Positions 28,350 to 58,332 of a stretch of DNA of 64,000 nucleotides are shown here, piece by piece. The stretch is from a virus (lineage: Duplodnaviria; Caudoviricetes). Within the stretch, counting starts at the first letter, position 1. Each line of letters opens with the position of its first letter. The position numbers and the translations under genes were made by a program. The stretch lies in the IMG/VR virus record IMGVR_UViG_3300033121_001593, positions 64,001-128,000 of that record; one strand, 5' to 3'. The notes below the pieces were generated by a model. The model was not told the origin of the DNA and did no database searches. It saw only the letters and a program-made list of their open reading frames with translations.

Positions 28350-28664
28350 CTAGTTGAGGGCGAGAATAACGCCCTCCAGGGCCGCCGAGGCGTCGGCGGC
28401 GGCCTCAGCGGTCACCCCCGATTCGTATTCCCCAGCGTCGATATCGGCCACGATAGTGGCCATGGCCTCTGCCACCGCCGCCTGAGTGGTGACGATGAAG
28501 CCGGGGAAGATCGGGCTGCCGTGCCATTCACCAAAGCGGCGGACGGCGCGGTTGACGATGAAGGTCTGACCGTTGACGGTTGCGAAGCCGGTCTCGGTGG
28601 TCCCGTCATTCGCAATGACGGTAACCTCTCCATCGAATTGAACTGGTACGGTGATCTGAGACAT
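28350..28664 (-). CDS. Hypothetical early protein (no Leu until the last 9 aa)
   Basis: AAAGGAG RBS; 104 aa. Confidence 0.7.
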   Translation of the reverse strand: MSQITVPVQFDGEVTVIANDGTTETGFATVNGQTFIVNRAVRRFGEWHGSPIFPGFIVTTQAAVAEAMATIVADIDAGEYESGVTAEAAADASAALEGVILALN

Positions 28665-28786
28665 GGTGACTGGTGCTCCTTTGTGCTACTGCTGAAAGAT
28701 GGTTAGATGCGGCCCGGCGTTCCGGCGCTCTTAGGTGGCTCGGTTAGGCGGAAGGCGATCAGCCCATCGCTTCCGAACCGAGCCAC

Positions 28787-28990
28787 TTAAGAGGGTCGGG
28801 ACTTGGCGATATCGCTGGTGACTAGGTCCTTGGCGGCCTGGATGGCGGCGGCCCGTGAGGAGGCCCAAAAGTCGTGGGTCAGGACGTGGCGGCCGGCCTT
28901 CTCGATGACGGCCTGAGAGAGATCGTCGCTGCCCTTGAACGTTACCTTGATCGTGTAGCCCTGGAAAGGCCGGGTGTAAGTGCTGGTCAT
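28787..28990 (-). CDS. Hypothetical early protein (first gene behind P1)
   Basis: AAAGGAC RBS behind the promoter cassette. Confidence 0.7.
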   Translation of the reverse strand: MTSTYTRPFQGYTIKVTFKGSDDLSQAVIEKAGRHVLTHDFWASSRAAAIQAAKDLVTSDIAKSRPS

Positions 28991-29038
28991 GTCGGGGTCC
29001 TTTGCGCTCGCCGTTCCGAATTTCGATCCTATAGCTCT

Positions 29039-29109
29039 ATTATACTCCTATCGTTTAACTTGTCAAGCGGTTTATGGCCTTTTGGCGAAAACTCGTAAAA
29101 TTTAAGGTT
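29039..29109 (-). promoter_or_regulatory. Early promoter cassette P1
   Basis: AACCTTAAA ... TTGACA-N16-TATAAT. Confidence 0.85.
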
Positions 29110-29258
29110 GGGCGGCGAGGCGCGTTGGCCGGCCCGAAATCGCCTTGACGGGCCGGCCATTCGTGCCCGCTACGGCCCAAAAACGGGGGGTAGACGGGCT
29201 TTTAGGGAATAGCCGGCCCGGTAGTATCGGCGGGGGCGTTACAGGCCCCTTGGGGCGC

Positions 29259-29537
29259 TCACGGGCGGGGCGGGGGGCGCTTGATCGAGGCCCGGTACAT
29301 ACGCCAGGCCAGGAGCGAAAAGACAAGCTGGAAGATCATAGCGGCGGTGGCGATCATGGCGACGGCTAGCAGGGGCGGGCGGTCCACGTAGACGGCTCCG
29401 CCCGCGCAGACGATGCCGGCGATCACCATGCAGGCGCAGAGGATCATGTAATGAGCATAGTCGGCGTCCTTCCATTCCGCCAGGGGGCGGTCGCTGATAC
29501 CGAGCAGGCGATGGCGCACGAAGGGCCGGAGCTTCAT
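29259..29537 (-). CDS. Small membrane protein (2 TM)
   Basis: Two hydrophobic segments. Confidence 0.55.
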   Translation of the reverse strand: MKLRPFVRHRLLGISDRPLAEWKDADYAHYMILCACMVIAGIVCAGGAVYVDRPPLLAVAMIATAAMIFQLVFSLLAWRMYRASIKRPPPRP

Positions 29538-29893
29538 CCGGCCTCCACGTAGAGATAGATGACGGCGACCGGCTCGTTGCGGGGCATCACGCCCGGAACC
29601 TCGACCGGGCGGGTGATGATCAGGCCCAGGCGCTCGGCAGCCTCGGCGCGCTCGCCCATCAGGCAGGCGGTCAGATAGCCGGCCATGAAGCCGATATCGG
29701 GCAGGATGACGTGCGACGCGCCTAGCCCGTGGCGCACGAGCGTATCTAGCTGCGGGGTCAGGGGCTGGCTATAATCGAGGATGGCCGGCCGCGGACCCTC
29801 CCGGACCTCACAGTCGCCCAGTAGGGCGGTTAGGTTGGCGCGGTCCTTCATCGACAGGGGCCAGCCGTAGTTATAGACGACGGGGGTTGACAT
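29534..29893 (-). CDS. Hypothetical protein
   Basis: AAGGA RBS; overlaps its neighbour. Confidence 0.6.
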   Translation of the reverse strand: MSTPVVYNYGWPLSMKDRANLTALLGDCEVREGPRPAILDYSQPLTPQLDTLVRHGLGASHVILPDIGFMAGYLTACLMGERAEAAERLGLIITRPVEVPGVMPRNEPVAVIYLYVEAG

Positions 29894-29899
29894 TGATCC

Positions 29900-30919
29900 T
29901 TAATTCTCCTTATTCGGGACCGGGTGATAGCCTTTCTTGATCTCGCCAAGGTCGGCGCGCCCGCGCAGGCTCTGCGGGCGAAAAAACGTCCCGACCATAC
30001 CGGGTCGACCAAACAGCGGGGCGTCGGCGTCATAGTGCGCCCAGTGAGCACGGACTTGGTGCAGCCGGCGCTTGTGGCCCGTCGCGCCAGACGCCGCGAC
30101 GTCGTCATCGACCCGCTTCTGCAACTGCTTGATCCGCAGCCATTTGTAGGCGACCGGCTCCTGGCCGGCGCGCGCCATACGGCGGCGCTCGGCACGCTGG
30201 TGGCGGATCGGCTCAGGCTCCGAGAGCGTCACGTTACGGCAGTTCATGAGCGAAAGAACAAAGGCGAAAGGGGAGATTAGTTTCTGCGCGAGTATCTGGT
30301 TGAGGAGATGAATCTCCGGCCGCTCAGGGTCCTCGCCGGCAAGGGAAAACGCGAAAAACATGCGCGTACCTATATCCTTACCGGGAAACGCCCGCCCGTC
30401 CTCGGTTAGATAAAGCGCGGCGAACGCCTCGGCCTTGACCGCTCCCATCATCATGACATAGGCGCGAATCCCTAAAATAAAGCCGGGTACAATACCGTCC
30501 TCTAAGGCACGAGACCGGGCGGCCTGAAGCGTAGGTAGGCTCAAGTTGTCCTCTAGCGACTTCCGCGCGTCCTTTCTGTCGCCGCCCGTCAGAAGGTTAG
30601 AAAAAAATCGCTCTAACGTCTTCCTCCGCACCGCTCCCGCGCGCCGCTCGACAGGGATAGGCGTGCAGACAATATGTGCCCCTATGCGCTGAATACCGGC
30701 CGGCAGGCCGGGTCCCTCCGCCGCCATAGACGGCGGACACGCGAACTCGATCCATGTCTCCTCGCCGGGGGCGGTAAGCCGATGAAAGTCATCAGAAAGT
30801 GACCAAATCCACTGGTCACTTTCCTCGAAAAACCAATATGCCGCCTCCGTGGCGTCAACCAGCGTCGCCTGGTCTTTGACCCAGGCCAGATCGGGGTCAA
30901 GCTCTAGAATTCCTAACAT
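29900..30919 (-). CDS. Hypothetical phage protein with a C-terminal HxVRxHW motif
   Basis: 339 aa, contains 'RLHQVRAHW', lower GC than surroundings. Confidence 0.7.
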   Translation of the reverse strand: MLGILELDPDLAWVKDQATLVDATEAAYWFFEESDQWIWSLSDDFHRLTAPGEETWIEFACPPSMAAEGPGLPAGIQRIGAHIVCTPIPVERRAGAVRRKTLERFFSNLLTGGDRKDARKSLEDNLSLPTLQAARSRALEDGIVPGFILGIRAYVMMMGAVKAEAFAALYLTEDGRAFPGKDIGTRMFFAFSLAGEDPERPEIHLLNQILAQKLISPFAFVLSLMNCRNVTLSEPEPIRHQRAERRRMARAGQEPVAYKWLRIKQLQKRVDDDVAASGATGHKRRLHQVRAHWAHYDADAPLFGRPGMVGTFFRPQSLRGRADLGEIKKGYHPVPNKEN

Positions 30920-31195
30920 CGCTGCTTCTCCTTGGGATAATTTGGGATAACGTGGGATACTGTGGGATATTCCGCCTCACAGGCCAGGCAGATATCGCCG
31001 GCCTTGCTCATGGCGTAGTGGCCGACCCAGCGGCCGCAATCGATGCAGCGCAGCACGCGGCGGGCGTCGACGGTTAGCTCCCAGGCCAGCCGCCATTCGA
31101 CCAGGCCGGCCGCTTGGGCGGCGGCGAGGAAGCCCTGATCGCCGCCATCGGCCAGCGCGGTCATCAGGGCTTGCCTCTCGCCGATTGTGATAAAG

Positions 31196-32647
31196 CTAGT
31201 CACCATCCTCCTCATTTGCGCCGGCCACGTTTGCGCCCTCGAAGGCCGCAATGAAGTGCATGAACTGAGACGACCAGCCGGTGACCTCAGCGGTCCAGAC
31301 TCCCGCATAGCTCACGCCGCGGCTATGGCCCGAAATGTCGGTGATGTAGTTGCGGGCGGCCCATGGCTCCGGCATCCGTCCGCTATCATCCATATCCTGC
31401 GAGTCGCTGAAGACGATCAGCCGGTCAGCCGGGGCACCGCGCCGATCCGCCTTGATGAAGTCCAGGGCCTGGCGGGTGAAGATACCACCGCCGCCCAGAC
31501 GCCCGGAGGCGCGCCTGATCTCGTCCATCAGGGCAAAGCCGCGCCGACGCTTCAGTAGCTCGGTCTGGTGCGTCTGCCCCAAATCGCTGCCGGCAGTAGC
31601 ATAGACCTGGACCTTGACCGCCTGCTCGGCCGCCAGCATGGCCAGGGCCGCGGCGGCGTCCAGCCAGGAAAGGTCGCTCTGCCCGGAGAGCCTGCCGTGC
31701 TCCATCGATCCCGATACGTCAACAACGAGCACGGTCTCGCCGGCCAGCTTGGGGGCGGTCGCCAGCGCCCGGAACATCATAGCCTCGATCTCGCCCTGCC
31801 AGCGGGGCGCTGCCCGGCCGGCGGCGATGAAGTTGATCGGCAGCAGCCAGCGCGCCGGGGCCGTCTCGAAGTAGGCCGCGATGGCGGCCCGGTCCACGCC
31901 CTCCCGCTCCATCAGGGCCAGGTTACGCAGGAAGGCCAGGCCGGGCAGCCGGCGCTCGGCCATCAGGCGCTCGAACGTCTCACGCTTGTTCGCTCCGGCG
32001 CTCAGGGCCACCTCCCAGGTATCGGGGGGCGTAACATGGCCGGCCTTTAGCTCGGCCAGGGCGCGGGCGTTGCGCGGCGTCGGGACCGGGTGCAGCAGGC
32101 GCGCGGCGTCTCGCAGGGTGACGGCGTGCCCCTTGCCCTGGTACTTGGCCAGTTGATAGTCATCGAACTGAGCAAAGGCGTGAGCCAGCCCGGTCTTGAG
32201 TTGGCTGGCCAGCGGCGCGCGCGGCTTGCCGGCGGGGGTCGGGTTTTCCATGGCGTAGAGCGTGAGGGCCTCGGTGATGCCGTCGGCGCGCCCGACGATC
32301 ACGGGTAACAGCTCGGCCACCAGCGCCCGGTGGGCGGGGTACTTGAGCATCTGGATTGCCACGAACAGGGGAACGTGGCGCAGGCCCTGTTCGTTGCGCG
32401 CCTGCCAGGCCAGACGGGCGACGACCGCCGGCTCGACCTCAGGCACCAGCTTGCGGATCACGTCCGCGGTCACCGCGCCGCGCTCATAGAATTTGTCCTC
32501 CCAGAGCAGGTTAGAGAGGATCGCTCGCGCCAGCAGGGCGTCCGATCCCTGCAGGGCGGCCGGCGCGCCCGCGCCTCCGGCCACGCGCGCCTTGGGGTCC
32601 ATCGCGCCCTTGCGGCTCGGCTTGGGGGTTGGCTTGTTGGTTCGCAT
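31196..32647 (-). CDS. rsr: Ro60/Rsr RNA-binding protein (TROVE + vWA domain)
   Basis: Motifs 'LLWEDKFYE', 'ARNEQGLRHVP', 'FDDYQLAKY', 'PDTWEVALSAG', 'LRNL', vWA MIDAS 'VDVSGSM' and 'FSDSQD'. Confidence 0.93.
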   Translation of the reverse strand: MRTNKPTPKPSRKGAMDPKARVAGGAGAPAALQGSDALLARAILSNLLWEDKFYERGAVTADVIRKLVPEVEPAVVARLAWQARNEQGLRHVPLFVAIQMLKYPAHRALVAELLPVIVGRADGITEALTLYAMENPTPAGKPRAPLASQLKTGLAHAFAQFDDYQLAKYQGKGHAVTLRDAARLLHPVPTPRNARALAELKAGHVTPPDTWEVALSAGANKRETFERLMAERRLPGLAFLRNLALMEREGVDRAAIAAYFETAPARWLLPINFIAAGRAAPRWQGEIEAMMFRALATAPKLAGETVLVVDVSGSMEHGRLSGQSDLSWLDAAAALAMLAAEQAVKVQVYATAGSDLGQTHQTELLKRRRGFALMDEIRRASGRLGGGGIFTRQALDFIKADRRGAPADRLIVFSDSQDMDDSGRMPEPWAARNYITDISGHSRGVSYAGVWTAEVTGWSSQFMHFIAAFEGANVAGANEEDGD

Positions 32648-32662
32648 CGCTGACTCCTTGGC

Positions 32663-33053: not shown

Positions 33054-34175
33054 TTAGCCGACTTCTAGCGCCCGATCCCATTCATAGACCAGGGCCTCCC
33101 AGTCGATATCGGCCTCGGTTGCGCCGATCTCCTTTAGCGCCTGACGCATCTGATCCTCGATCATGGTGACCTGACAAAAGAGCCAGAAGTACTCACGCAG
33201 CCTGATCGACCGGGTCCGGCTCGTGCCCTTGAAGCTGGGTATGAGGCACCGCATCGCTTCATTGGACAGCCGATGCTGATCGACGATTGTGTGTGCATAC
33301 CACGTCGCAAAATTACGAAAGCCTTGAAAGCCCTCCTCTGACCAGGCGATATCCATCTGCCTTGGGGGTGCCGTCAGGCGGTCGATGATCCGGTCGACAG
33401 CGCGTAGACTTCGCGTTAGGTTACGCGCAATCAAGGCCGGGTCGGTGACGACCTCCGGGATGGGCGGCTCGGTCGGCTCGTCGGCCGCGCTCCGGGCGGC
33501 CCTCAGCCTGGGCGTCAGGCTTTGATCGGGGCTATACCAGGCCAGGAGCGTGTTTGCGCCCGTCCCGCTTTCCCTGAATGAGTCTGGCGGAAGCTCGGAC
33601 GTCTTGAACGCTGCCCGAAGCTCGGCTATGGCCCGCTCCTTGCGAAAGGCCAGCCCGGCCGGCGCGATCATCATCATTTGACCGCGCGGCGTGAGCAGGC
33701 TCTTGGCATGAGCGAGATGCTTCGCCCAGGCCAGCTTGTCGCTTTCGTCGCCAAAGGGCGGGTTGCCTACGATCAGATCGTACTGGTGATCGGGGCGATA
33801 TCTCAGGAAGTCGTCGGCGACTAGATTGACGCCGCGATCCTTCAAGGCTAGCCGGTTCAGCGGATTCTTTTCGGCCACATCCACGCGCGCCGCCGGCCAG
33901 CGCCGCCCGATCTCGTTTAGCCAGGCTCCGGTGCCGCAACTTGGCTCCAGGATCGTCTCAGGCTCATAATCGGTGACGGCCAGGGCATCCAGGGCCTGCG
34001 TAATGACCGCGTCCGGCGTCGGGTAGAAGTCGTACCGGTTAAGGGTCACCGCCGCCCCGCCGGCCAGGACTCGCCCGACCAGGGCCTCGACTTGCGCCAG
34101 GATTTCGGGGTCGCGTTCGGCCTCGCCGGCGGCCGCCAAGGCTTGTAAGTGGGTCAGGTCAATCGTCGTCGCCAT
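33054..34175 (-). CDS. SAM-dependent N6-adenine (amino) DNA methyltransferase-like protein
   Basis: FYPTP, motif I ILEPSCGTG, motif IV GNPPF. Confidence 0.85.
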   Translation of the reverse strand: MATTIDLTHLQALAAAGEAERDPEILAQVEALVGRVLAGGAAVTLNRYDFYPTPDAVITQALDALAVTDYEPETILEPSCGTGAWLNEIGRRWPAARVDVAEKNPLNRLALKDRGVNLVADDFLRYRPDHQYDLIVGNPPFGDESDKLAWAKHLAHAKSLLTPRGQMMMIAPAGLAFRKERAIAELRAAFKTSELPPDSFRESGTGANTLLAWYSPDQSLTPRLRAARSAADEPTEPPIPEVVTDPALIARNLTRSLRAVDRIIDRLTAPPRQMDIAWSEEGFQGFRNFATWYAHTIVDQHRLSNEAMRCLIPSFKGTSRTRSIRLREYFWLFCQVTMIEDQMRQALKEIGATEADIDWEALVYEWDRALEVG

Positions 34176-36948: not shown

Positions 36949-37218
36949 TTACTCGCAGGCTCCCTTGATGTAACGGGTATCGGCGGGCAGCGCCCAGACC
37001 GGGATGGTTGAGGGGGTGGGCCGGGCGATGGCGGCGAAGCCGTCGATACCCTGCTCGTCAGTGGTGGCCTCGTCGGCAATCTCGTACCAGATCGCTGCGG
37101 CTGCCCAGTCGGTGTAGGTGGCGACCGTCTCGGTGCCGGTGACGATGACGATCCGGCGCTCGAAGGGGTTGTCTAGGGCGGTATAGGTGGGGGCGGTTGC
37201 GGTGGTCTGGGTGGTCAT
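36949..37218 (-). CDS. Hypothetical early protein (MTTQT start, first gene behind P2)
   Basis: Promoter-proximal, AAAGGAC RBS. Confidence 0.75.
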   Translation of the reverse strand: MTTQTTATAPTYTALDNPFERRIVIVTGTETVATYTDWAAAAIWYEIADEATTDEQGIDGFAAIARPTPSTIPVWALPADTRYIKGACE

Positions 37219-37263: not shown

Positions 37264-37316
37264 ATTATACTCCTATTCGTTCAGAATGTCAAGCAAAAAT
37301 GAGAATTTTTAAGGTT
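37264..37316 (-). promoter_or_regulatory. Early promoter cassette P2
   Basis: AACCTTAAA...TTGACA-N17-TATAAT. Confidence 0.88.
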
Positions 37317-38455: not shown

Positions 38456-38620
38456 CTAGCCGATGATGCTCTGGACCAGGCCGGCCTTCGGCCCGTTCTC
38501 TACGATGAATTCCATAACCTCGTCGTCGCTGCAGGCCATAACGTCGAAGCTATGCTGGCGTCCGTTGCTGGTCATTACTACCTTGAAGGTCCTGAGGCTG
38601 CGGTTGCTGGTGGGGGTCAT
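38456..38620 (-). CDS. Small early protein (54 aa, first gene behind P3; not in the ORF track)
   Basis: AAAAGGAC RBS; MTPTSNRSLRTFKVVMTSNGRQHSFDVMACS... Confidence 0.65.
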   Translation of the reverse strand: MTPTSNRSLRTFKVVMTSNGRQHSFDVMACSDDEVMEFIVENGPKAGLVQSIIG

Positions 38621-38666: not shown

Positions 38667-38711
38667 ATTTTACTCCTATTCGTTCACTTTGTCAAGGTAT
38701 TCAACCTTAAA
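38667..38711 (-). promoter_or_regulatory. Early promoter cassette P3
   Basis: Inverted AACCTTAAA plus TTGACA-N17-TAAAAT. Confidence 0.85.
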
Positions 38712-39159: not shown

Positions 39160-39376
39160 TTGGGGCCTCCCCGGTCGGCACGGTCGCGCCGATCTTGTTC
39201 AGTAGGTGAACGATCAGATTGATCGTTCCGGCCGTGAGCAGGGGTTCGCTCACCGTCTGGCCGGCGTGAATACCGCTGCGGGCGACACGCTGCGTCGGCA
39301 GGGACGCTTCCAGCAGCGTCCGCGCCATCGCGCCGGCGGCTTTGATCTCGGCGGCGTCGAAGGTTCCTGTGGTCAT
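39152..39376 (-). CDS. Hypothetical protein
   Basis: ATGA overlap, GGAG RBS. Confidence 0.55.
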   Translation of the reverse strand: MTTGTFDAAEIKAAGAMARTLLEASLPTQRVARSGIHAGQTVSEPLLTAGTINLIVHLLNKIGATVPTGEAPSE

Positions 39377-39609
39377 GATTCTCTCCGGGTGGTGAACTCG
39401 AAACTGATCGCCCAGCCCGTCTCGGCCTCGTCTACATAGACCTGGGCAAAGGCGCGGCGGCCGTCGACCATATCCACACTGACGCCAGCCACGTCGCCCT
39501 CGGTCCAGGTTACGGCGGCGCTCACGGCTCCGCCATGATCGACGGCGGCCTCGAAGGCCCCTGCACAGGCGGCCTCCCGCTCGGTGACTGTCATTGTATC
39601 GGTGGTCAT
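39373..39609 (-). CDS. Hypothetical early protein, Leu-free
   Basis: 78 aa, 0 Leu. Confidence 0.7.
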   Translation of the reverse strand: MTTDTMTVTEREAACAGAFEAAVDHGGAVSAAVTWTEGDVAGVSVDMVDGRRAFAQVYVDEAETGWAISFEFTTRRES

Positions 39610-39663: not shown

Positions 39664-39864
39664 CTAGAAACGATGGCTGCGCTCGAAGTGGCGCTCGGCC
39701 ATCCCGGCCTCGTGGGCGGCGGCGGCAGCGGCTTCGTAAGCGGCGAAGGCGGCGGCGGCCTCAGGGGACTCAGGCCCGAAGGCGGCGGCGGCTCGGCTGT
39801 GGGCGGCGGCGGCGCTTATGGCGGCCCCTTCGGCAAAACTGGCTCGGCGGCTGTAGCTCGTCAT
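39664..39864 (-). CDS. Ala-rich early protein, Leu- and Val-free (first gene behind P4)
   Basis: 66 aa; AAAGGAC RBS. Confidence 0.7.
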   Translation of the reverse strand: MTSYSRRASFAEGAAISAAAAHSRAAAAFGPESPEAAAAFAAYEAAAAAAHEAGMAERHFERSHRF

Positions 39865-39915: not shown

Positions 39916-39988
39916 ATTCTACTATAGGTCGTTTAGTTTGTCAAGCAAAAAAGGCCCTTTTGGCAAAAAGTCGTAAAGTTTTAAGGTT
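39916..39988 (-). promoter_or_regulatory. Early promoter cassette P4
   Basis: AACCTTAAA...TTGACA-N17-TAGAAT. Confidence 0.88.
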
Positions 39989-41240: not shown

Positions 41241-41608
41241 TTGCGGGCTTGCGGGTTGACGGTCAGGCCGCCATCGTTGACCGCCAGCGCCAGGCGCTTT
41301 CTGCCTATCGCCAGCCGCGTCGCCTCAAGCCGGTCGGCGGCGTCGGTATCACCGACCGCCAGGGCCTGCCGCTTCAGACGCAGGCAGGAGGCCTCGGCCT
41401 CCAGCAGGCCGACCTCGTCATCGGGCGCGGGCGCGTCGCCGCGGGCGACGGCGTCAGCCGCGACGCGCGCCACGACCACGGCGCGCACAGCGGCGGCCCG
41501 TGACGGGGCGACGGTCGCGCGCAAGTGCTCGGCCTCGCCGACCGAAAGCATCAGGGGCACCGAGACGGTCTCGGTGCCGGTGGGGTATACAGCGTGTCTA
41601 CCGGGCAT
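41237..41608 (-). CDS. Hypothetical protein
   Basis: 123-aa ORF in chain. Confidence 0.55.
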   Translation of the reverse strand: MPGRHAVYPTGTETVSVPLMLSVGEAEHLRATVAPSRAAAVRAVVVARVAADAVARGDAPAPDDEVGLLEAEASCLRLKRQALAVGDTDAADRLEATRLAIGRKRLALAVNDGGLTVNPQARK

Positions 41609-41963
41609 TCTCTTTCATCCTTTCCTTCTGTTCCGCCTGCCGGATATCCTCCTGGACCTCCGGCGCTAGCCAGACGAGTCTGGTGCCCAAGGGGGCGTCG
41701 ATTTCGGCCTCGAAGCGCGCCAGCGCGCCCGTGCCGGCCGTACTGCGTAGCTCGCCGTTCACAAGGCGCAGCGGGTGCTCCGGCTTGAGCCAGGGCTTCC
41801 AGTTGACCGTGAAACCATGCGCCGCCAAGAAGGCGGCCATCTCATGATTGCGCGTGTAGACCGTGACCAGGCCGCCCGGCACAACCAGCGGGTCGGGGCC
41901 GGCCAGATCGACCACCAGCCGGTGGACGTTGCGCGCAATCGAATAAACCGCTTGTGGCTCCAT
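41598..41963 (-). CDS. Hypothetical protein (probably leaderless)
   Basis: ATG lies 6 nt after a -10 box. Confidence 0.6.
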   Translation of the reverse strand: MEPQAVYSIARNVHRLVVDLAGPDPLVVPGGLVTVYTRNHEMAAFLAAHGFTVNWKPWLKPEHPLRLVNGELRSTAGTGALARFEAEIDAPLGTRLVWLAPEVQEDIRQAEQKERMKENAR

Positions 41964-41969: not shown

Positions 41970-41997
41970 ATTTTACCACCCTCATTCATCCTGTCAA
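41970..41997 (-). promoter_or_regulatory. Sigma70 promoter (leaderless transcript)
   Basis: TTGACA-N16-(TGn)TAAAAT. Confidence 0.65.
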
Positions 41998-42741: not shown

Positions 42742-42764
42742 GATGGGAGTCCTTTCTATCGCTA

Positions 42765-42810
42765 GCCCGGCTGGTCGGCCTCGTGATGAGGAGCTTGCAC
42801 CAGTCCGGGC
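42765..42810 (-). ncRNA. Conserved intergenic RNA motif, copy A
   Basis: Shares the core GCAAGCUCCUC..GAGGCCGA and a covarying outer stem with 50389-50437. Confidence 0.55.
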
Positions 42811-42825
42811 GTTTGGTTGTTGGCT

Positions 42826-43074
42826 TTAGACGCCTTCGCCCTCGAAGCGCATTCGGGCATCTGCGACTGCCTGATTGGCGGCGGCCTGGTTCCGGCTGGC
42901 GGCCTGCCAGGCGGCCTCGGCGGCGTTGACCTTTGCGTCGTCGTCGGCGTTGCTTGGGTTACGCTGCATCCGGGCCTGCGCCCAAACCTTCCAGGCTGCG
43001 TCGGCGGCCTGATTGGCCTCGAAGCGTGCCTGCCGTGCTGCTCTTACCTGGGGGTGCTGGTTCTTGGCTGCCAT
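42826..43074 (-). CDS. Ala/Gln-rich early protein, Leu-free (first gene behind P5)
   Basis: 82 aa, 0 Leu; AAAAGGAC RBS. Confidence 0.72.
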   Translation of the reverse strand: MAAKNQHPQVRAARQARFEANQAADAAWKVWAQARMQRNPSNADDDAKVNAAEAAWQAASRNQAAANQAVADARMRFEGEGV

Positions 43075-43124: not shown

Positions 43125-43197
43125 ATTTTACTACAGGTCGTTTAGTTTGTCAAGCAAAAAAGGGCCTTTTGCCAAAAACTCGCAAAGTTTTAAGGTT
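43125..43197 (-). promoter_or_regulatory. Early promoter cassette P5
   Basis: AACCTTAAA...TTGACA-N17-TAAAAT; near-identical to P4 and P12. Confidence 0.88.
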
Positions 43198-45038: not shown

Positions 45039-45443
45039 CTAGCGCGGGCTGGCCCAGACACCGTCGCCAATGTAGGCCACCGCCCGGTGACTGCGGCCGG
45101 CGCTCGACGGGCTATTGTACAGCTTGATCCGCCCGCCCAGGTGCCGGGCGACCGCTGCAATCGTGTGGCTGCAGGCGCAGCCCTCGCCGATGTTCTGGCC
45201 GTATTCACAGGTGCAGGTACAGACCAGCGTCGGGCGGGTCGCGCCTTCCATCACGCTGCTGATCTGGCTGACCGTCACCTCGTAGATTTCGCCGGAGTGG
45301 CCGGACCCAACTACGAAGTCGCCGTCGCCGACCATATCCACAACGTGGGTGGCGGCCTTGGCGCTCATGCGGGCGACGTCGCGCTCGATCTCGGTGCCTT
45401 TGCGGTTAGTTCGGGGGGTGAAAACTGTCTTGATGCTGGCCAT
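45039..45443 (-). CDS. SWIM zinc-finger protein
   Basis: 'YEVTV...CTC...CSH' SWIM signature. Confidence 0.72.
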   Translation of the reverse strand: MASIKTVFTPRTNRKGTEIERDVARMSAKAATHVVDMVGDGDFVVGSGHSGEIYEVTVSQISSVMEGATRPTLVCTCTCEYGQNIGEGCACSHTIAAVARHLGGRIKLYNSPSSAGRSHRAVAYIGDGVWASPR

Positions 45444-45498: not shown

Positions 45499-45717
45499 CT
45501 AGTAGCGAATGCTCGCCTCGTTGCGGGTCTCAGGCTCGTCGCCGTTGTCGAAAATGATACCGCTGCCGTCGCAGTCGTAGCACCAGTTGTAACCGCTGGC
45601 TGCCGGGGCCTGTCCGTCTCGGCTGCCGCAGCCGCCGCAAGTCTCGCAGATCGGGCTGTCGCCTTCGGCTGCGTCGGGGGTCATTTCGGTCGTCTCGGTC
45701 CAGATTGTGCGGGTCAT
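45499..45717 (-). CDS. Small Zn-ribbon protein (CxxCxGxG x2), Leu- and Val-free (first gene behind P6)
   Basis: CETCGGCG...CYDCDGSG, DnaJ-type Zn motifs. Confidence 0.72.
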   Translation of the reverse strand: MTRTIWTETTEMTPDAAEGDSPICETCGGCGSRDGQAPAASGYNWCYDCDGSGIIFDNGDEPETRNEASIRY

Positions 45718-45771: not shown

Positions 45772-45816
45772 ATTTTACTCCTAGTCATTCAATTTGTCAA
45801 GGGGCTGAACCTTAAA
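45772..45816 (-). promoter_or_regulatory. Early promoter cassette P6
   Basis: Inverted AACCTTAAA plus TTGACA-N17-TAAAAT. Confidence 0.88.
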
Positions 45817-47056: not shown

Positions 47057-47284
47057 TTACGCTCCGAACTCGGCGGCCATCCGGGCGGCCCATGGCTTTG
47101 CAGCGGCGCACTTCGGCATCTTGGCTGTGGCGCTCGCCACCGTCATCCGCCCGCCGCGCACCTTGTAGTACAGGCCCTGCGCCTTCAGTTCGGCGGGGCT
47201 GATCGTGGCAGCCGGGCCGGTCTGCTCGAACATTCCGAATATTTCCTGCTCGGTCATGGGGGCGCTGGTGGTCTGGGTGGTCAT
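47057..47284 (-). CDS. Hypothetical early protein (MTTQT start, first gene behind P7)
   Basis: AAAAGGAC RBS. Confidence 0.7.
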   Translation of the reverse strand: MTTQTTSAPMTEQEIFGMFEQTGPAATISPAELKAQGLYYKVRGGRMTVASATAKMPKCAAAKPWAARMAAEFGA

Positions 47285-47341: not shown

Positions 47342-47415
47342 ATTTTACTCCTACTTGTTCAAAATGTCAAGCATTTTCAGGGCCTCTTTTGGCCTTCTTG
47401 GAAAGTTTTAAGGTT
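47342..47415 (-). promoter_or_regulatory. Early promoter cassette P7
   Basis: AACCTTAAA...TTGACA-N17-TAAAAT. Confidence 0.88.
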
Positions 47416-47856: not shown

Positions 47857-48663
47857 TTAGCGCCAGCCGGCGCTCGCTCGGTCGGTGATTTGCTCGATGG
47901 CGACACGTAGATTGTCGCTGATTTTTTCGGGCGGCAGATCGAACGTCTTTGACCGTTCCACGTACTGCGCCGCCCAGGCCGTCAGGGCGGCGACCTCGCC
48001 GGCCTCCACCACGCGCCCGCCAAAGCCAAGGCGCTTGGCCGTCGCCAGATTCGTCGCCTCACGCATACACTCGACCGGCCAGGCGGGGTTCCAGGTCAGG
48101 GCGTCGAAGTCCAGCGACGGGGGATTGCCCGATGACAGGCTCTCCAGCGATGATAGCGCCGGCACCAAGAACATCAGCCAGTCCTTGACCGTCGCGCCCT
48201 CCGGCCAGCCCTGCCGTGCCTGGTTGCGCGCCTGGCTGGCGTAAGCCTGCACCAGGGCCGACCGGCGGTGGATCATGTACCAAAGATGAGCCACCGACTG
48301 GCCCAGCGGGGTCGTTACGTAGAGCAAGGGGCTGGCCAGCCATTCCAGGGCGGTCGGGTTGGACCGCAAGACCAGGCCCAGGAACTTGGTTAATTCCATG
48401 CCGGCGGCGTCGATTGTCGCCGGCACGCTCAGGCCCAGGACCGCCCAGTCCAGCTTGTCCAGGACCTCACGCGTCGCCGTCCGGTCAACCCGGAAGTACC
48501 AGGCGGTCGGGGGAACGTACACGAAGCGCAGATCGTGGTCGCTCGTCTCCGCGCCCAGGCCGCGCGCCCGTGAGCCGGCGTCTACCGCATAGATCACGGT
48601 GTAGCCCGTCGCCTGCTCGATGGCCTGTAAAAGGCCCTTGATTTCGTCTCGATATGTCGTCAT
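47857..48663 (-). CDS. Pol-beta-superfamily nucleotidyltransferase (RlaP/YcgL-like)
   Basis: 'GSRARG....SDHDLRFVY' (GS..DxD), 'ELTKFLGL..SNPTALEWL.SP'. Confidence 0.85.
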   Translation of the reverse strand: MTTYRDEIKGLLQAIEQATGYTVIYAVDAGSRARGLGAETSDHDLRFVYVPPTAWYFRVDRTATREVLDKLDWAVLGLSVPATIDAAGMELTKFLGLVLRSNPTALEWLASPLLYVTTPLGQSVAHLWYMIHRRSALVQAYASQARNQARQGWPEGATVKDWLMFLVPALSSLESLSSGNPPSLDFDALTWNPAWPVECMREATNLATAKRLGFGGRVVEAGEVAALTAWAAQYVERSKTFDLPPEKISDNLRVAIEQITDRASAGWR

Positions 48664-50363: not shown

Positions 50364-50388
50364 AGTGGGGGTGCCCTTTCGTAAAATT

Positions 50389-50437
50389 CCGCCTGCCGGT
50401 CGGCCTCGGTGATTGAGGAGCTTGCCCGGTCAGGCGG
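50389..50437 (-). ncRNA. Conserved intergenic RNA motif, copy B
   Basis: Same core as 42765-42810 with a compensatory outer stem. Confidence 0.55.
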
Positions 50438-50451
50438 CTGGTTTTGAGTGA

Positions 50452-50769
50452 CTAGAAGCTGGCGAAACCGTTGCTGCAGTCGGTCATCCAGCGGCTGGTG
50501 GCCTCGGCGCTGAATGCCTGCGCCTGTGCCTCGGCGTCGGCCTCGAAGGTGCCCTCGGTGCCGAATTCTGCGAACATGGCCGCCATACGGGCCATCTCGG
50601 CCTCGATGACTTCGGTCTGCTCGGCGTCGGCCTCGGTGGCGATACCGCTCTCGATGATGAACCAGCCGGTGGCGGTCTGGAAGGTCTGCTCGGTGCGGGC
50701 AGCTTGGCGGGCTGCCTGGCGGGTGGCGATGATTGCGGTCCAGTCCTGGGTGGTGGTTTGGGTGGTCAT
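50452..50769 (-). CDS. Early protein, Leu-free (MTTQT start, first gene behind P8)
   Basis: 105 aa, 0 Leu, 1 Val. Confidence 0.75.
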   Translation of the reverse strand: MTTQTTTQDWTAIIATRQAARQAARTEQTFQTATGWFIIESGIATEADAEQTEVIEAEMARMAAMFAEFGTEGTFEADAEAQAQAFSAEATSRWMTDCSNGFASF

Positions 50770-50828: not shown

Positions 50829-50873
50829 ATTTTACTCCTACTTGTTCAATTTGTCAAGGGGTTGAACCTTAAA
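50829..50873 (-). promoter_or_regulatory. Early promoter cassette P8
   Basis: Inverted AACCTTAAA plus TTGACA-N17-TAAAAT. Confidence 0.88.
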
Positions 50874-50937: not shown

Positions 50938-50977
50938 ATATTGCTACTTGACAAACTGAATGATATCATGATATAAT
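50938..50977 (+). promoter_or_regulatory. Promoter P9 (cca), same variant as the rtcB promoter
   Basis: ATATTGCTAC-TTGACA-N18-TATAAT. Confidence 0.82.
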
Positions 50978-51024
50978 GGGCTTAGTTAGATAAGCCAAGC
51001 CGAACCGAAAGGACGCCCGCCGAA

Positions 51025-52347
51025 ATGAAGATCAGCCCCGCAGCAGAGACCATCAGCCGAATAATCGAGACCGCAGGCGGAAGCGCCTGGATCACGGGCG
51101 GGGCCTGCCGCGACGAGATCATGGGCCGGACGCCTCGCGACTTCGACATCGAGGCTTTCGGGATCACGAAGGAAGCGGCCTGTGAGGCTATCCGGGCCGC
51201 AGGCTTCGCCTGCAAGATCGCCGGAGCCGCCTACAGCATTATCATCGCCACGGTGGACGGCGAGGATATCGAGATTAGCATCAGCGCCGGCACGATTGCC
51301 GAGGCTGCCGCCCGGCGCGACTTCACCGCCAACGCCATCTACTTCCGCCCGGCCACCGGCGAGTGGGCCGACTCCTTCGGCGGCCGCGCCGATATCGAGG
51401 CCGGCATCATTCGAGCCACGCCCGGCTTCGCTCAGGACCCCGGCCGCATGATGCGGGCCGCCCGCTTCGCCGCCCGCTTCGGCTGGACCATCGAGCCGGC
51501 GACGCGTGACATGATCCGGGCCATGGCCGGTCGTATGAGCGAAGTGGCCACGGAGCGCATCTGGCCGGAATTCGCCAAGGCTTTCGAGGCCGACCGCCCC
51601 GGCGACTTCATCCGGGCCATGGCCGAGATCGGCATCATGGGCCACTTCCCCGAAATCGCCGCCATCTGGGACTGCCCGCAGGACCCGGCTTGGCACCCTG
51701 AGGGACCGACCGGCCCCCACTCCGCTCACACGATGGACGCCGCCGCCGCCATCTGCCGGCGCGACGGTATCACAGGCGAGGATCGGATCGCCTTCATCGC
51801 CGGAGCCATGGTGCACGACTTCGGCAAGGCTACGACGACGGTGACGCGGGAAGACGGGCGCATCGCCAGCCCCGGACACGCCGAGGCCGGTATCGAGATC
51901 GCCGCCCGCTTTTTCGCCCGCTGCGGCATCGCCGGCAGCCCGGTGGCCGAGCGAGCCATCGCCATGACGGCTGAGCACATGAGCCACACGGGCGAGATCA
52001 GCCCCCGCACGGTGCGCCGGATCGCCGCCCGCATCGCCCGCCATGGCGCGACGATCAGCGACATCGCCCGGATCATCGAGGCCGACGCCTCCGGCCGCCC
52101 GCCCATCCCGGCGGGGATGCCTGAGGGTGGCCGGCGCATGATCGAGATCGCCGCCTCCATGGCGATTGTGGACGCCGCCCCCGTGGCCATCATCATGGGC
52201 CGGCACTGCATCGCCGCCGGCATGGCCCCCGGTCCCCGCATGGGCCGGATCGTGCGAGCCGCCTTCGAGGCTCAAATCGACGGGGCCTTCGAGGACGAGG
52301 CCGGCGGGATCGCCTGGATCGCCGAACACGCCGCCGAAATCGCATAG
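51025..52347 (+). CDS. cca: Class II tRNA nucleotidyltransferase (CCA-adding) with HD domain; leucine-free
   Basis: GG.xRD, DFD, RRDFTAN, DP.R..RA.RF, ERIW.E, HPEG, HDFGK, GHA..G motifs. No Leu in 440 codons. Confidence 0.92.
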   Translation: MKISPAAETISRIIETAGGSAWITGGACRDEIMGRTPRDFDIEAFGITKEAACEAIRAAGFACKIAGAAYSIIIATVDGEDIEISISAGTIAEAAARRDFTANAIYFRPATGEWADSFGGRADIEAGIIRATPGFAQDPGRMMRAARFAARFGWTIEPATRDMIRAMAGRMSEVATERIWPEFAKAFEADRPGDFIRAMAEIGIMGHFPEIAAIWDCPQDPAWHPEGPTGPHSAHTMDAAAAICRRDGITGEDRIAFIAGAMVHDFGKATTTVTREDGRIASPGHAEAGIEIAARFFARCGIAGSPVAERAIAMTAEHMSHTGEISPRTVRRIAARIARHGATISDIARIIEADASGRPPIPAGMPEGGRRMIEIAASMAIVDAAPVAIIMGRHCIAAGMAPGPRMGRIVRAAFEAQIDGAFEDEAGGIAWIAEHAAEIA

Positions 52348-52374
52348 GGCAGCCGCAAGGCTGGGGGGAGGCCC

Positions 52375-52447
52375 AACCTTAAATTTTTTGAATATCCCCA
52401 AAGAGGCCCCTTTTTTGCTTGACAAATTGAACGACCTGATATATAAT
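52375..52447 (+). promoter_or_regulatory. Early promoter cassette P10
   Basis: AACCTTAAA...TTGACA-N17-TATAAT. Confidence 0.88.
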
Positions 52448-52495: not shown

Positions 52496-52684
52496 ATGTT
52501 CAACGACAATGCAATCATCGACAGCCTGACCAAGGGACAAGAAATCGAAGTTATCAACCCCGACACCGGCCGCCGGGAAACCGCCACGGTCACGGGAACG
52601 AGCGAGCACAAAGGCAACCCGATTGCATACGTCATATTCGCAAACGGCGACGAAAAATACATCTTCGCCTCCCAAATCTGCTAA
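52496..52684 (+). CDS. Small SH3/KOW-like protein (first gene behind P10)
   Basis: AAAAGGAC RBS; 'KGQEIEV...ATVTG...YVIFANG'. Confidence 0.7.
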   Translation: MFNDNAIIDSLTKGQEIEVINPDTGRRETATVTGTSEHKGNPIAYVIFANGDEKYIFASQIC

Positions 52685-54465: not shown

Positions 54466-54510
54466 TTTAAGGTTGTATATCTTGACATTCTGAACGAATA
54501 GGAGTAAAAT
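54466..54510 (+). promoter_or_regulatory. Early promoter cassette P11
   Basis: TTTAAGGTT plus TTGACA-N17-TAAAAT; spacer identical to P2. Confidence 0.88.
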
Positions 54511-54567: not shown

Positions 54568-54777
54568 ATGACCACCCAGACCAACACCACCTACCTGAGC
54601 AACGAAGAGATCACCGAACTGGCCGAAATGACCGGAGCCTCCTTCGAGGTAGTATTGAAGGTCACGAAGCAGGTCGAGGCGGGCTGGAATTTCGACGTAG
54701 AGCCGGATTATGCAATGGTCACCGACCGGATCATCGAGGACGTTACCTACGAAATCTCGATGGGCCGCGGCCAGTAG
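54568..54777 (+). CDS. Acidic early protein (MTTQT start, first gene behind P11)
   Basis: AAAGGA RBS. Confidence 0.72.
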   Translation: MTTQTNTTYLSNEEITELAEMTGASFEVVLKVTKQVEAGWNFDVEPDYAMVTDRIIEDVTYEISMGRGQ

Positions 54778-55998: not shown

Positions 55999-56414
55999 CG
56001 ACGATCACCGAGGATCAGCGCCGGCAGATCGCCGGCCTGCCGCAGATGTTTGTCTATGGCCGGCCGCGCTGGCCAGTCGGGATCGGCCCCGACTGGATCA
56101 TCCTGAACGGCCCCGGCTTTCTCTATGGCCAGCGCGTCTGGGAAGGCGACGGCGCTTTCGGCCGCTGCTTTGCAGCCCTCGATCCTGAGGACCGCGACAC
56201 GCCCGACTCCCTGGCCGCCAATCTGGCCGGCCGGCCGGCGCGGGTGACGGTCGTCAGCGAGGCCGCCGCTGCCGAGGATTATGACCGCTGGCGGGCCGCC
56301 AAGACCGCCCGTTATGCTACCGCCGCCGCCATGCCGGAAGATGCCCTCCGGCGGGCTTGGATTGACGAAAGGCAGGAATCGGAATGCCGCAAATGGCGCA
56401 ACCAACCGACCTAA
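55995..56414 (+). CDS. Hypothetical protein
   Basis: ATGA overlap. Confidence 0.55.
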   Translation: MTTITEDQRRQIAGLPQMFVYGRPRWPVGIGPDWIILNGPGFLYGQRVWEGDGAFGRCFAALDPEDRDTPDSLAANLAGRPARVTVVSEAAAAEDYDRWRAAKTARYATAAAMPEDALRRAWIDERQESECRKWRNQPT

Positions 56415-57040: not shown

Positions 57041-57486
57041 TGCCACGCTTTGCCGCCCCTGTTAGCCAGGAGACGCTGCTCGATTGGGTCCGTGACTTCG
57101 TGACCCGCCCGCAAGTCGAGAGCGACCGCCGCGGCGGATGGGCACCGGTCAGCGACGCCGATCTGGGCCTGCTGGACCGGATCATCGAGAATATGATCTG
57201 CATTCACTGGGCACCGGACGCGGACGGCGACCGGCCCATCGAGTCCTATCTGAATGACCGGACGCAGTTCGAGCCATGGCCCTGGGTGCCCGTGCCCTAC
57301 TGGCACGGGGCCGGCGACATAGAGGAATTCGTGACGGCCACGATGCGCAACGCGCAGGCCGCCACCGCCCGCTTTGCCCTGGCCCTGGAGTTTGCCGAGA
57401 GCCGGCGCGAGGCCGCCGCCAAGGCCGACCGTGAGGCCGCCGCCGCCCTGGCCCTCGCCGACATAACCGACGCTTCCCTGCCCTGA
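57040..57486 (+). CDS. Hypothetical protein
   Basis: GGAGG RBS, TAATG overlap. Confidence 0.62.
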   Translation: MPRFAAPVSQETLLDWVRDFVTRPQVESDRRGGWAPVSDADLGLLDRIIENMICIHWAPDADGDRPIESYLNDRTQFEPWPWVPVPYWHGAGDIEEFVTATMRNAQAATARFALALEFAESRREAAAKADREAAAALALADITDASLP

Positions 57487-57512
57487 GAGACCCCGGCCGC
57501 CGGCCCCGCCTC

Positions 57513-57543
57513 AAAAAGCCCGCTTGACAAGAGCGGGCTTTTT
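57513..57543. terminator. Bidirectional intrinsic terminator
   Basis: AAAAAGCCCGCT..AGCGGGCTTTTT. Confidence 0.7.
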
Positions 57544-57549
57544 CGCGCC

Positions 57550-57622
57550 AACCTTAAAAGTTTGCGACTTTTTGTCAAAAGGCCCAAAACCGCTTGACAA
57601 ACTAAACGACCTGTAGTAGAAT
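57550..57622 (+). promoter_or_regulatory. Early promoter cassette P12 (drives the ncRNA)
   Basis: AACCTTAAA...TTGACA-N17-TAGAAT. Confidence 0.88.
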
Positions 57623-57640
57623 GACTATAGGATAAAGAAA

Positions 57641-57978
57641 GGCATTAACAACCGCATAGGGAAAGGCCCACGGGGCTGCAAGGCCCCACTCGCTAAGTAG
57701 GCTGCTAGGACAACACAAGCCATAAGCACTCGAAGCCCGGCAACGGGCGGCCCTCTCAGGGTAAGTCAGACAAACGGCGGCTAGGCCCGGAAGACCTCAC
57801 AAAAGGCAGGGTATCGGCAGGCAGGCACTGAGAGTTCGGGAAGGCGGGATGAAGATACTAGCGGAGACGTTGACCGGATAAGAAGCTGAGCGCCAGGGGA
57901 CGAACCGGGCGAAGGTGAAGGACCAACAGCGGAAAACCAAGGCAAGGCGAGAGGCACCCCTAAGCGGCGGTTAAGGCC
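57641..57978 (+). ncRNA. Large structured ncRNA of unknown family (~340 nt)
   Basis: No ORF of 60 aa or more. 5'/3' ends pair, with nested long-range helices and two GCAA tetraloop hairpins. Lies behind a strong promoter. Confidence 0.72.
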
Positions 57979-58005
57979 CCAAGGATCAGCGTAAGGACCA
58001 AACCA

Positions 58006-58332
58006 ATGACCACCGACCCCAGCAATATCTACACGCAGACCCCGCCAAACGCGACGACGCTCGGCTACTGGATGCGCCAGGCCGCTAATGACTATCCACG
58101 CGTCACGCGCCAGATCATTCAGGCCGGGGTCGACGCCGTCGACGCGGTGGCCGCTCAGGGCGCGGATGCAGCGCCGGCAATCATAGCCGCCGCCTGGCGT
58201 AAGATCGTGGAGGCCATTGACGAGTATCGCGGGAACACCTGCACGAGCTGCCGAGGGCGCGGGCGTTCCGAAAACGTCGAAGCCTTTTGGCCCTGCCAGG
58301 ATTGCGCCCCATTCGCAGACGAGATGAACTAG
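58006..58332 (+). CDS. Hypothetical protein with a C-terminal Zn ribbon (1 Leu in 108 aa)
   Basis: AAGGAC RBS; CTSCRGRG...CQDC. Confidence 0.7.
   Translation: MTTDPSNIYTQTPPNATTLGYWMRQAANDYPRVTRQIIQAGVDAVDAVAAQGADAAPAIIAAAWRKIVEAIDEYRGNTCTSCRGRGRSENVEAFWPCQDCAPFADEMN

Follow-up and report, generated by a model that had tools for sequence, protein, structure and literature searches.

Leucine-free and leucine-poor promoter-proximal genes in a large high-GC phage and their possible link to tRNA 3'-end repair

Introduction

Why should the proteins encoded directly behind the promoters of a phage be built almost without leucine (Leu), and why should a tRNA 3'-end enzyme among them contain none? 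The question is raised by a stretch of 64,000 nucleotides (nt), called here the window, which comprises bases 64001-128000 of one 143,318-bp contig with 63.6% G+C (IMG/VR virus record IMGVR_UViG_3300033121_001593; Duplodnaviria, Caudoviricetes). An earlier note on this DNA, made from the sequence alone, had listed 11 small open reading frames (ORFs), each described as the first after a promoter cassette, and had combined their low Leu content with a Leu-free CCA-adding enzyme into a proposal of codon-gated early translation. In our study, we found that the Leu depletion behind these promoters is real and goes beyond chance: it is specific to Leu, restricted to the coding frame, dependent on the position of a gene behind its promoter and conserved among relatives, and the 440-residue protein that lacks Leu altogether is identified as a tRNA nucleotidyltransferase of the CCA-adding type. 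Coordinates refer to the window unless the genome is named.

Leucine depletion behind promoter cassettes

The cassette pattern, TTGA[CA][AT]-N16-18-TAnAAT, was written without reference to gene content and describes a near-consensus sigma-70-type promoter with the extended core TTGACAAaCTGAAcGA...TAnAAT. Genome-wide it has 32 matches, every one of them intergenic and facing a gene, and an independent scan counted 18 promoter-like sites between 36.5 and 56.4 kb, as against 3.1 +/- 1.8 in shuffled sequences. The structural module (661-28240) contains none of the cassettes, an absence that fits an early role for these predicted promoters. Genes, 219 in total, were called with a codon-usage model trained on the long ORFs of the genome, and the promoter pattern alone, independently of composition, determined which genes count as first genes (28 genes).

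Among small genes, defined as those of at most 140 amino acids (aa), the 22 first genes contain 4.4% Leu and the 101 others 8.8% (Mann-Whitney p=2e-6, permutation p<=1e-5); in the window alone, the corresponding values are 2.6% and 8.4% (p=7e-5). Six genes of the genome have no Leu at all, compared with 0.18 expected, and all six fall within the 39-52 kb part of the window. Leu is the most depleted of the 20 residues in first genes (ratio 0.38-0.50, p=1.5e-7 to 2e-6) and the only one with a strong depletion, and Phe (1.65-1.8x), Thr, Met and Ile are raised. As a share of the hydrophobic residues, Leu is halved in first genes (0.16 versus 0.33, p=1.3e-6), and the total hydrophobic fraction stays nearly constant (0.232 in first genes versus 0.266, p=0.053).

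The depletion is also graded by position. Small genes of rank 1 behind a promoter have 4.4% Leu, those of rank 2 have 7.3% and those of rank 3 or more have 8.6-9.9% (Spearman rho 0.35, p=8e-7). The earlier note had expected such a trend with gene rank and had described distal genes and the structural module as ordinary in Leu; the trend is present, and both descriptions are correct, with 9.2% Leu in the structural module. Late genes contain 9-10% Leu, encoded mostly by CTG codons. First genes whose promoter carries an AT-rich upstream element have 42 Leu in 1387 residues (3.0%), versus 7.8% where the element is missing (p=6e-4). The residual Leu positions in first genes are uniformly distributed (mean 0.48); clustering toward the C-terminus was looked for in them and none was found.

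Special attention was given to simpler causes, which were tried and rejected. The earlier note had itself named Ala-rich or low-complexity composition as an explanation that might account for the depletion, and the depletion survives it: Ala is flat in first genes (ratio 1.01), and against controls matched on length and Ala content the Leu difference is still -4.3 points (19 of 22 comparisons negative, Wilcoxon p=2e-4). A bias from the MTTQTT N-terminus that the cassettes encode was discarded because dropping the first ten residues leaves the effect, and paralogy of the first ORFs because blastp at 1e-3 gives no match between them. An architecture in which a short ORF is followed by a terminator does not account for the pattern either, since hairpins follow only some first ORFs and a terminator scan was unremarkable (26 versus 15.7 +/- 4.6). 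Leader-peptide attenuation was likewise rejected: the first ORFs are poor in Leu or free of it, instead of being enriched in the regulatory amino acid, and the hairpins that follow them are no stronger than those after other genes (p=0.85).

A CCA-adding enzyme without leucine

The gene at 51025..52347 (+) encodes a class II tRNA nucleotidyltransferase (CCA-adding) with an HD domain, 440 aa long and containing no Leu, as the earlier note had stated. It is the first gene of a rightward unit, divergent from the Leu-free ORF at 50452, and its sigma-70-type promoter (50948..50977, plus strand), composed of TTGACA, an 18-nt spacer and a TG-extended TATAAT, agrees with the consensus at 12 of 12 positions. 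The protein has 57 Ile, 19 Met, 19 Phe, 92 Ala and 9 Val, and the binomial probability of finding no Leu in 440 residues is 2e-17.

The PolyA_pol head and RNA-binding domains are matched by PF01743 (E=8e-15) and PF12627 (E=8e-12), which each pass their curated cut-offs, and the C-terminal HD phosphohydrolase domain by PF01966 (E=7e-7), with H264 and D265 invariant in the alignment. The catalytic carboxylates (D/E-x-D after GGxxRD) and the RRD motif are also present, as G25, G26, R29, D30, D41, E43, R97, R98 and D99 are all invariant. The predicted structure has a predicted local distance difference test score (pLDDT) of 91.7 and a predicted template modelling score (pTM) of 0.84, and the top Foldseek matches of this model are the solved CC- and CCA-adding enzymes 3WFQ, 1MIV, 5HC9 and 9KMA (E ~1e-15, template modelling score ~0.65). 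Judged by its conserved motifs and its model, the enzyme looks functional. Its predicted activity is the addition or repair of CCA on tRNA; CC-, A- or poly(A) addition may be considered as further options.

Eight database relatives with 70-98% identity have no more than one Leu each. The next homologues, at ~41% identity, have 50-60 Leu (11-12%), and the mean over 112 further homologues is 11.2%, with a minimum of 7.4%. Two apparent single Leu occur in the clade. The first lies in an N-terminal extension that overlaps the promoter and is, for that reason, probably a start-site miscall; the second is a TTA codon. In the alignment, the positions at which the outgroup conserves Leu carry Ile, Met, Phe, Ala or Gly in the Leu-free clade, and some 50 core Leu have thus been replaced in a 440-aa enzyme of conserved fold. 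A head-domain segment of ~19 residues (alignment columns 90-108), found in the nearest Leu-containing homologues, is missing from the Leu-free clade.

It is important to note that a 479-aa antisense ORF (50986-52425, minus strand) spans the whole CCA gene in the codon-aligned frame and has no family match of its own. This frame is most likely open because its stop codons would need TTA, CTA and TCA in the sense strand, which are absent from the CCA gene. An artefact arising from the antisense ORF was rejected, given that the plus frame carries the Pfam domains and gives the confident CCA-enzyme model.

The genome has ten tRNA genes, all outside the window, and none of them is for tRNA-Leu. A full 3' CCA is encoded by none of these genes (genome 32004-38290), which read CTA, CCT, CAA, GCC and similar after the discriminator, so the phage's own tRNAs need a CCA-adding enzyme. 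Completing their 3' ends is a mundane role for this enzyme, and one that leaves its absence of Leu unexplained.

Codon usage in the CCA gene

The in-frame rate of CTN/TTR triplets is 0 in the CCA gene versus 0.090 in other large genes, and its two non-coding frames have 0.039 and 0.078 versus 0.052 and 0.074 in the other large genes. As the Leu triplets are absent in frame only, the constraint acts on codons and not on DNA or RNA motifs. Across seven diverged sequences of the CCA gene there are no CTN codons and one TTA.

Three candidate causes at the nucleotide or codon level were rejected on this basis. Avoidance of a DNA motif or restriction site, and avoidance of an mRNA-interferase motif of the 'ACA-less' type, both fail because CTN/TTR triplets are near normal out of frame. 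Gating by a rare codon (bldA/TTA type), or by a phage tRNA matched to late codons, fails because all CTN/TTR codons are depleted, the commonest (CTG) included, and because the phage has no tRNA-Leu.

A second codon is affected in part of the clade. Four of the seven lineages lack GTC, the commonest Val codon of this phage, in their CCA gene, and over all frames of the present gene the triplet occurs only 2 times in 1323 nt. All nine Val of this gene are encoded by GTG, and the CCA gene of relative L006 (1984-3306) uses GTT (10) and GTG (15); that of L004 (1780-3090) has no Val, and that of L005 (1351-2661) has one. GTC is used in frame in the CCA genes of L001, L003 and L035. A choice among synonymous Val codons points to decoding, that is, to tRNAs or events in the ribosomal A site, and is hard to explain by protein chemistry. 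The avoidance of GTC hints at a further target that depends on the host, for example tRNA-Val(GAC). TCN codons for Ser are also rare in the CCA gene, where AGC is preferred.

Conservation among relatives

In L033, whose CCA enzyme is 98% identical, every Leu-free gene stays Leu-free, despite 12% amino-acid divergence in ORF 45499. L035, an NCBI assembly with 82% identity at the orthologue of ORF 50452, has 4.1% Leu in first small genes versus 8.1% in the others (p=0.018), and five more distant contigs, taken together, have 5.6% in first genes versus 7.9% (p=0.008). At the level of single families, all nine members of the 50452 family (63-96% identity) and all three of the 42826 family (~42% identity) are Leu-free, and the slot of ORF 45499 is occupied in L035 by an unrelated 69-aa ORF that is also Leu-free. 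The orthologues of ORF 39373 have 1 Leu in 73 residues and 2 in 63, and close orthologues of ORF 45039 have 2-6% Leu. RtcB, PARP and RlaP, by comparison, are Leu-normal in all relatives. In L004 and L005, RtcB lies directly downstream of the CCA gene.

Gene map of the cassette-driven region

The 14 ORFs listed in the earlier note were all recovered with the same coordinates, lengths and Leu counts, including the total of 14 Leu in 849 aa for the 11 first ORFs. Their G+C content at third codon positions is 0.75-0.88, and an AAAGGA-type ribosome site lies 6-9 nt before the ATG. Against the syntenic near relative L033, the ratio of nonsynonymous to synonymous differences (pN/pS) is 0.2-0.3, which indicates that these ORFs are genuine genes. 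No Pfam or PHROG family matched the small ORFs, a result that neither favours nor opposes the anti-defence role suggested for them in the earlier note, and the AlphaFold model of the 50452 family, an alpha/beta fold with long helices, reaches a pLDDT of only 64.5.

On the minus strand, a cassette with an AT-rich upstream element (50829..50857) diverges from the CCA promoter and drives a first ORF of 105 aa with no Leu (50452..50769). Further to the left, the cassette at 47342..47370 precedes a 75-aa ORF with 2 Leu (47057..47284), directly after which stands a gene for a PARP catalytic domain with WGR and normal Leu content (45862-47055, minus strand). The cassette at 45772..45800 is followed by a Cys-rich, Leu-free first ORF of 72 aa with CxxCxGxG-like motifs (45499..45717) and a second ORF of 134 aa with 3 Leu (45039..45443), and that at 43125..43153 by a first ORF of 82 aa with no Leu (42826..43074). 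Behind the cassette at 39916..39944 both the Ala-rich first ORF (39664..39864, 66 aa) and the second (39373..39609, 78 aa) lack Leu. First ORFs with two Leu each, of 54 aa (38456..38620) and 89 aa (36949..37218), follow the cassettes at 38667..38695 and 37264..37292, respectively. The leftmost minus-strand cassette (29039..29066) precedes a first ORF of 67 aa with 3 Leu (28787..28990) and a second of 104 aa (28350..28664), whose 3 Leu all fall within the last 9 residues. The three second ORFs, for which the earlier note had also claimed low Leu, have exactly the counts that it gave.

On the plus strand, the cassettes at 52419..52447 and 54482..54510 precede first ORFs of 62 aa with 1 Leu (52496..52684) and of 69 aa with 3 Leu (54568..54777). 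The cassette at 57594..57622 is followed by ~380 nt (57623-58005) without any plus-strand ORF of at least 45 aa, a segment that is a candidate non-coding RNA and has no Rfam match; a search of 28-64 kb of the window gave no Rfam matches at all. The 108-aa ORF that comes next (58006..58332, 1 Leu) starts 384 nt past its promoter. There are two exceptions to the rule of low Leu. One is a first ORF of 121 aa with 13 Leu (41598..41963, minus strand), whose promoter (41970-41997) has no AT-rich upstream element; the other is the RtcB RNA ligase (62023..63342, plus strand; promoter 61952-61979), with 30 Leu in 439 aa (6.8%). The earlier note had recognized RtcB as an exception but had omitted the ORF at 41598, and its list of the first ORF after each cassette, although right in every count, needs this addition and the distance noted for ORF 58006.

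Three sequence features accompany the cassettes and their ORFs. The CCA and RtcB promoters carry an identical ATATTGCTAC immediately upstream of the -35 hexamer (50938-50953 and 61942-61957); it is absent upstream of the other cassettes of this genome and may be a common regulatory site of the two repair genes. Many cassette-driven ORFs (36949, 47057, 50452, 54568, 58006 and 39373) start with MTTQTT, MTTD or similar, with ACC-rich codons after the ATG. Such an N-terminus also occurs in their orthologues and in unrelated first ORFs of relatives, and it may belong to the expression cassette, for instance as a context for translation initiation. Finally, the segments after the Leu-free ORFs 42826 and 50452 (42742-42825 and 50364-50451) share a conserved stretch, GCAAGCTCCTCA..CAC.GAGGCCGACC, which is enclosed by a longer inverted repeat and looks like a repeated structured element.

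Genome context

The contig is a tailed-phage genome, in which we identified a portal, a DUF6260/linocin-like capsid, a terminase and a 3610-aa protein. Its load of RNA-repair genes is unusual: the CCA-adding/HD enzyme and RtcB are joined by RlaP, a Pol-beta nucleotidyltransferase of the RNA-repair pathway (47857-48663, minus strand), by Ro60/TROVE-vWA (31196-32647, minus strand) and by PARP-WGR. A methyltransferase gene at 33054-34175 on the minus strand belongs to the same dense group of genes for RNA repair and RNA modification. Outside the window, in a gene-poor stretch, a 206-aa ORF with 1 Leu (genome 48854-49474, plus strand; p=3e-7) has a low coding score; it may be either one more Leu-poor gene or an erroneous call.

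Hints on the host come from the terminase, which is closest to those of Streptomyces and Actinoplanes phages (48-51% identity), and from FtsK and DUF5131 genes in the genome. A scan of genomes for the host returned only cellular CCA enzymes with 25-28% identity, mostly from Streptomyces, a result that was probably driven by the search pattern and is uninformative on the host. No DNA-level relatives were found among phage GenBank records, nor any relatives in IMG/VR with CCA-enzyme patterns; a metagenome scan gave a single member of the CCA-enzyme clade, together with distant homologues.

Interpretation of the depletion

The compositional pattern is the one that would be expected if the proteins of first genes must be made without tRNA-Leu. 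We therefore consider the question of what might impose such a need. In our judgment, there is an even chance that the right explanation is selection for translation independent of tRNA-Leu, its probable driver being an attack by the host on this tRNA, whose damage the CCA enzyme would help to repair. Under it, selection would have removed Leu codons completely from the CCA enzyme and to a graded degree from promoter-first genes, and the purged proteins would be translatable while the tRNA-Leu of the cell is unusable. That state would most likely stem from an attack, in the infected cell, on tRNA-Leu, a class II tRNA whose variable arm is long. A toxin or an immune effector of the host could be responsible, acting on the acceptor end in the way that tRNA-Ser is disabled by MenT/AbiEii-type nucleotidyltransferases. 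An end damaged in this manner would be restored by the CCA-adding/HD enzyme, and a repair enzyme must not depend on the part that it repairs, which would account for its lack of Leu. The gradient with gene rank could reflect the cost of stalling: when a ribosome halts on a Leu codon of an operon's first gene, the expression of every gene behind it would be lost through transcriptional polarity or mRNA decay, and little would be lost by a halt in a distal gene. We infer the unavailability of tRNA-Leu as selective agent, the host effector, the 3'-end lesion and the polarity argument from this pattern, and the link of the CCA enzyme to Leu in particular is of the same kind, given that such enzymes act on tRNA 3' ends in general.

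Several observations weigh against this explanation. RtcB has normal Leu (6.8%) behind a similar promoter, and its orthologues beside the CCA gene in L004 and L005 are Leu-normal as well. One to three Leu are kept in 6 of the 11 first ORFs as originally tallied (7 of 11 by the counts listed per ORF), so that a total loss of tRNA-Leu would not be tolerated. Late genes are rich in Leu in a phage without its own tRNA-Leu, and any block must accordingly be transient or fully reversed. L004 and L005 have only the CCA enzyme free of Leu, and their neighbouring first genes contain 9-17% Leu. Even distant homologues in the 45039 family are somewhat low in Leu (2-8%). Lastly, the small first ORFs do not share the avoidance of GTC seen in the CCA gene, and the Leu depletions of the two might therefore differ partly in cause. 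From the comparison of relatives, the Leu-free CCA enzyme is the core, clade-wide trait, and the Leu-poor first wave an elaboration in the sub-lineage of this phage. The proposal of the earlier note fares accordingly: leucine-independent translation of a putative early wave is partly supported, in that the depletion is Leu-specific, graded by rank, conserved, in frame and accompanied by a Leu-free CCA enzyme, but RtcB, the residual Leu of first ORFs and the Leu-normal or Leu-rich first genes of L004 and L005 speak against a strict codon gate.

A gate could also be imposed by the phage itself, which would disable host tRNA-Leu early, express a Leu-poor first wave and then restore tRNA-Leu with its own repair enzymes for the Leu-rich middle and late genes. 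The same compositional facts fit this scheme, and the phage encodes a full RNA-repair set. There is also a precedent of sorts, as an E. coli tRNA-Leu was reportedly cleaved after T4 infection, in work ascribed to Yudelevich in 1971. In the 1960s, changes in leucine-specific tRNA upon T2/T4 infection were described and became a matter of debate (PMC3328318), but a 1966 study saw no temporal link between them and the early-late switch. Moreover, we identified no gene for a phage tRNA-Leu nuclease or blocker, and a phage that encodes no tRNA-Leu and has ~9-10% Leu in its late genes would need to reverse in full the damage it had caused. RtcB, a repair enzyme, needs Leu, and the finding that in L004 and L005 the CCA enzyme alone is Leu-free is unlike a global gate. 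We regard this possibility as unlikely.

Causes at the level of the protein are improbable to a similar degree; they comprise resistance to a Leu-directed protease, constraints on early proteins that are small, helical and rich in Ala/Phe, or a low Leu content passed on in particular families. Some facts speak for them: low Leu extends to distant homologues in the 45039 family, several first ORFs are helical and rich in Ala, the alpha/beta model of ORF 50452 has long helices, and in L004 and L005 low Leu cannot be predicted from promoter-proximal position alone. The trait is common, however, to unrelated, non-paralogous proteins, including the non-homologous replacement in the slot of ORF 45499, and it survives matching on Ala and length. 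An enzyme of 440 aa with a conserved fold has exchanged ~50 core Leu for Ile, Met or Phe, the highly expressed capsid protein has normal Leu (29/323), and the effect on synonymous Val codons in the CCA gene cannot arise at the protein level.

If instead the mRNA is at risk, a host ribosome-dependent endonuclease of the RelE/HigB type, or another A-site factor, would cut at the CUN codons for Leu and, in certain hosts, also at GUC. Such cleavage would agree with an avoidance that is frame-specific and partly codon-specific (GTC versus GTG/GTT), and codon-specific A-site toxins are established, with RelE targets cited in PMC10264068. No known toxin of this class covers all six Leu codons, though, late mRNAs are rich in CTG, and cleavage in the A site leaves unexplained why, of all genes, that of a tRNA 3'-end enzyme should show an absolute, clade-wide depletion; this makes it the least probable of the biological alternatives. 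An artefact of wrong frames or strands in a high-GC genome, of DNA-motif avoidance or of chance among small ORFs, which could be suspected from the 479-aa antisense ORF and from the widely varying composition of small ORFs, is hardly credible in view of the Pfam domains and confident model of the plus frame, the normal out-of-frame CTN, the pN/pS of 0.2-0.3, the permutation p<=1e-5 and the six Leu-free genes where 0.18 are expected. The remaining probability belongs to causes outside those considered here.

Returning to selection for translation independent of tRNA-Leu, its widest form is more tentative and falls somewhat short of an even chance: a clade of large high-GC phages may carry a Leu-independent opening programme, made up of a Leu-free enzyme for tRNA 3'-end repair and Leu-free or Leu-poor promoter-proximal proteins, directed against a form of bacterial immunity, as yet undescribed, that puts tRNA-Leu out of use and, depending on the host, tRNA-Val(GAC) as well. 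If this is true, the purging of codons from counter-defence genes would be a general signature, readable from sequence, of which tRNA a host defence targets; the phage genome alone would name the attacked component of translation through the codons missing from its first-expressed genes and from its repair enzyme. It would allow a computable screen across phage genomes for the tRNAs targeted by bacterial defences and for how phages start up under crippled translation, and it would predict a tRNA-Leu-directed defence, so far undescribed in bacteria. Phage-encoded CCA-adding enzymes, which occur widely and lack an explanation, would gain a definite function, and nature would have supplied cases of a 440-aa enzyme that folds without any leucine. 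Full-text searches of the literature brought up neither Leu-free proteins in phages nor a bacterial defence specific for tRNA-Leu.

Comparison with known systems

Residue sparing itself is already known; what is new here is a sparing that is absolute, positional and located in a putative phage counter-measure. Amino-acid biosynthetic enzymes show a low cognate amino-acid bias (Alves and Savageau; Fasani and Savageau 2014, PMC4209129), and the likeness is that proteins restoring the supply of one amino acid are depleted of it, so that they can be made in shortage. The biases known so far are statistical and modest, occur in metabolic enzymes of cells and concern amino-acid synthesis, whereas the depletion in the phage is absolute (0/440), affects a tRNA-end enzyme, extends by position to unrelated early genes and would concern the usability of a tRNA.

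In Chlamydia, the proteome is partitioned into 'Up-Trp' and 'Down-Trp' proteins under the tryptophan-depletion immunity of the host (PMC3937554). There, too, the proteome of a parasite is split by its content of one amino acid, and limitation of that amino acid by the host selects which proteins are translated. Chlamydia differs in being an intracellular bacterium that is starved through host IDO, with no promoter-proximal order and no enzyme wholly free of the residue.

T4 Pnkp and Rnl1 repair tRNA cut by the anticodon nuclease PrrC. Background on that system is given in PMC1920235, and phage tRNAs with altered anticodon loops evade anticodon nucleases (PMC10264068). In T4 and in tRNA-carrying phages, as proposed here, RNA-repair enzymes or substitute tRNAs counter a host attack on specific tRNAs. 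A counter-measure purged of the codons of the attacked tRNA was not found in the papers searched, and the present phage supplies no replacement tRNA-Leu.

Among vertebrate antiviral factors, SLFN11 cleaves all tRNA-Leu and SLFN12 cleaves tRNA-Leu-TAA (PMC12215978). Schlafen-11/12 thus offer a parallel of innate immunity that disables tRNA-Leu, with codon-dependent repression of viral translation. They are eukaryotic, however, and cut at the base of the acceptor stem, damage that is beyond mending by a CCA-adding enzyme alone.

A further parallel comes from mycobacteria, in which MenT3, of the DUF1814/AbiEii abortive-infection family, extends the 3' ends of the class II tRNA-Ser, which it recognizes by the long variable arm; tRNA-Leu becomes a full MenT3 substrate once two nucleotides are deleted, and overexpression of the CCA-adding enzyme PcnA rescues cells from MenT3 (PMC11541572). 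The mycobacterial case differs from that of the phage in that the known target of the toxin is tRNA-Ser and that PcnA is a cellular enzyme of ordinary composition, and for the phage the toxin is hypothetical. The likeness lies in the remedy: an abundant class II CCA-adding enzyme restores 3' ends blocked by an isoacceptor-specific toxin, as the Leu-free enzyme would for tRNA-Leu.

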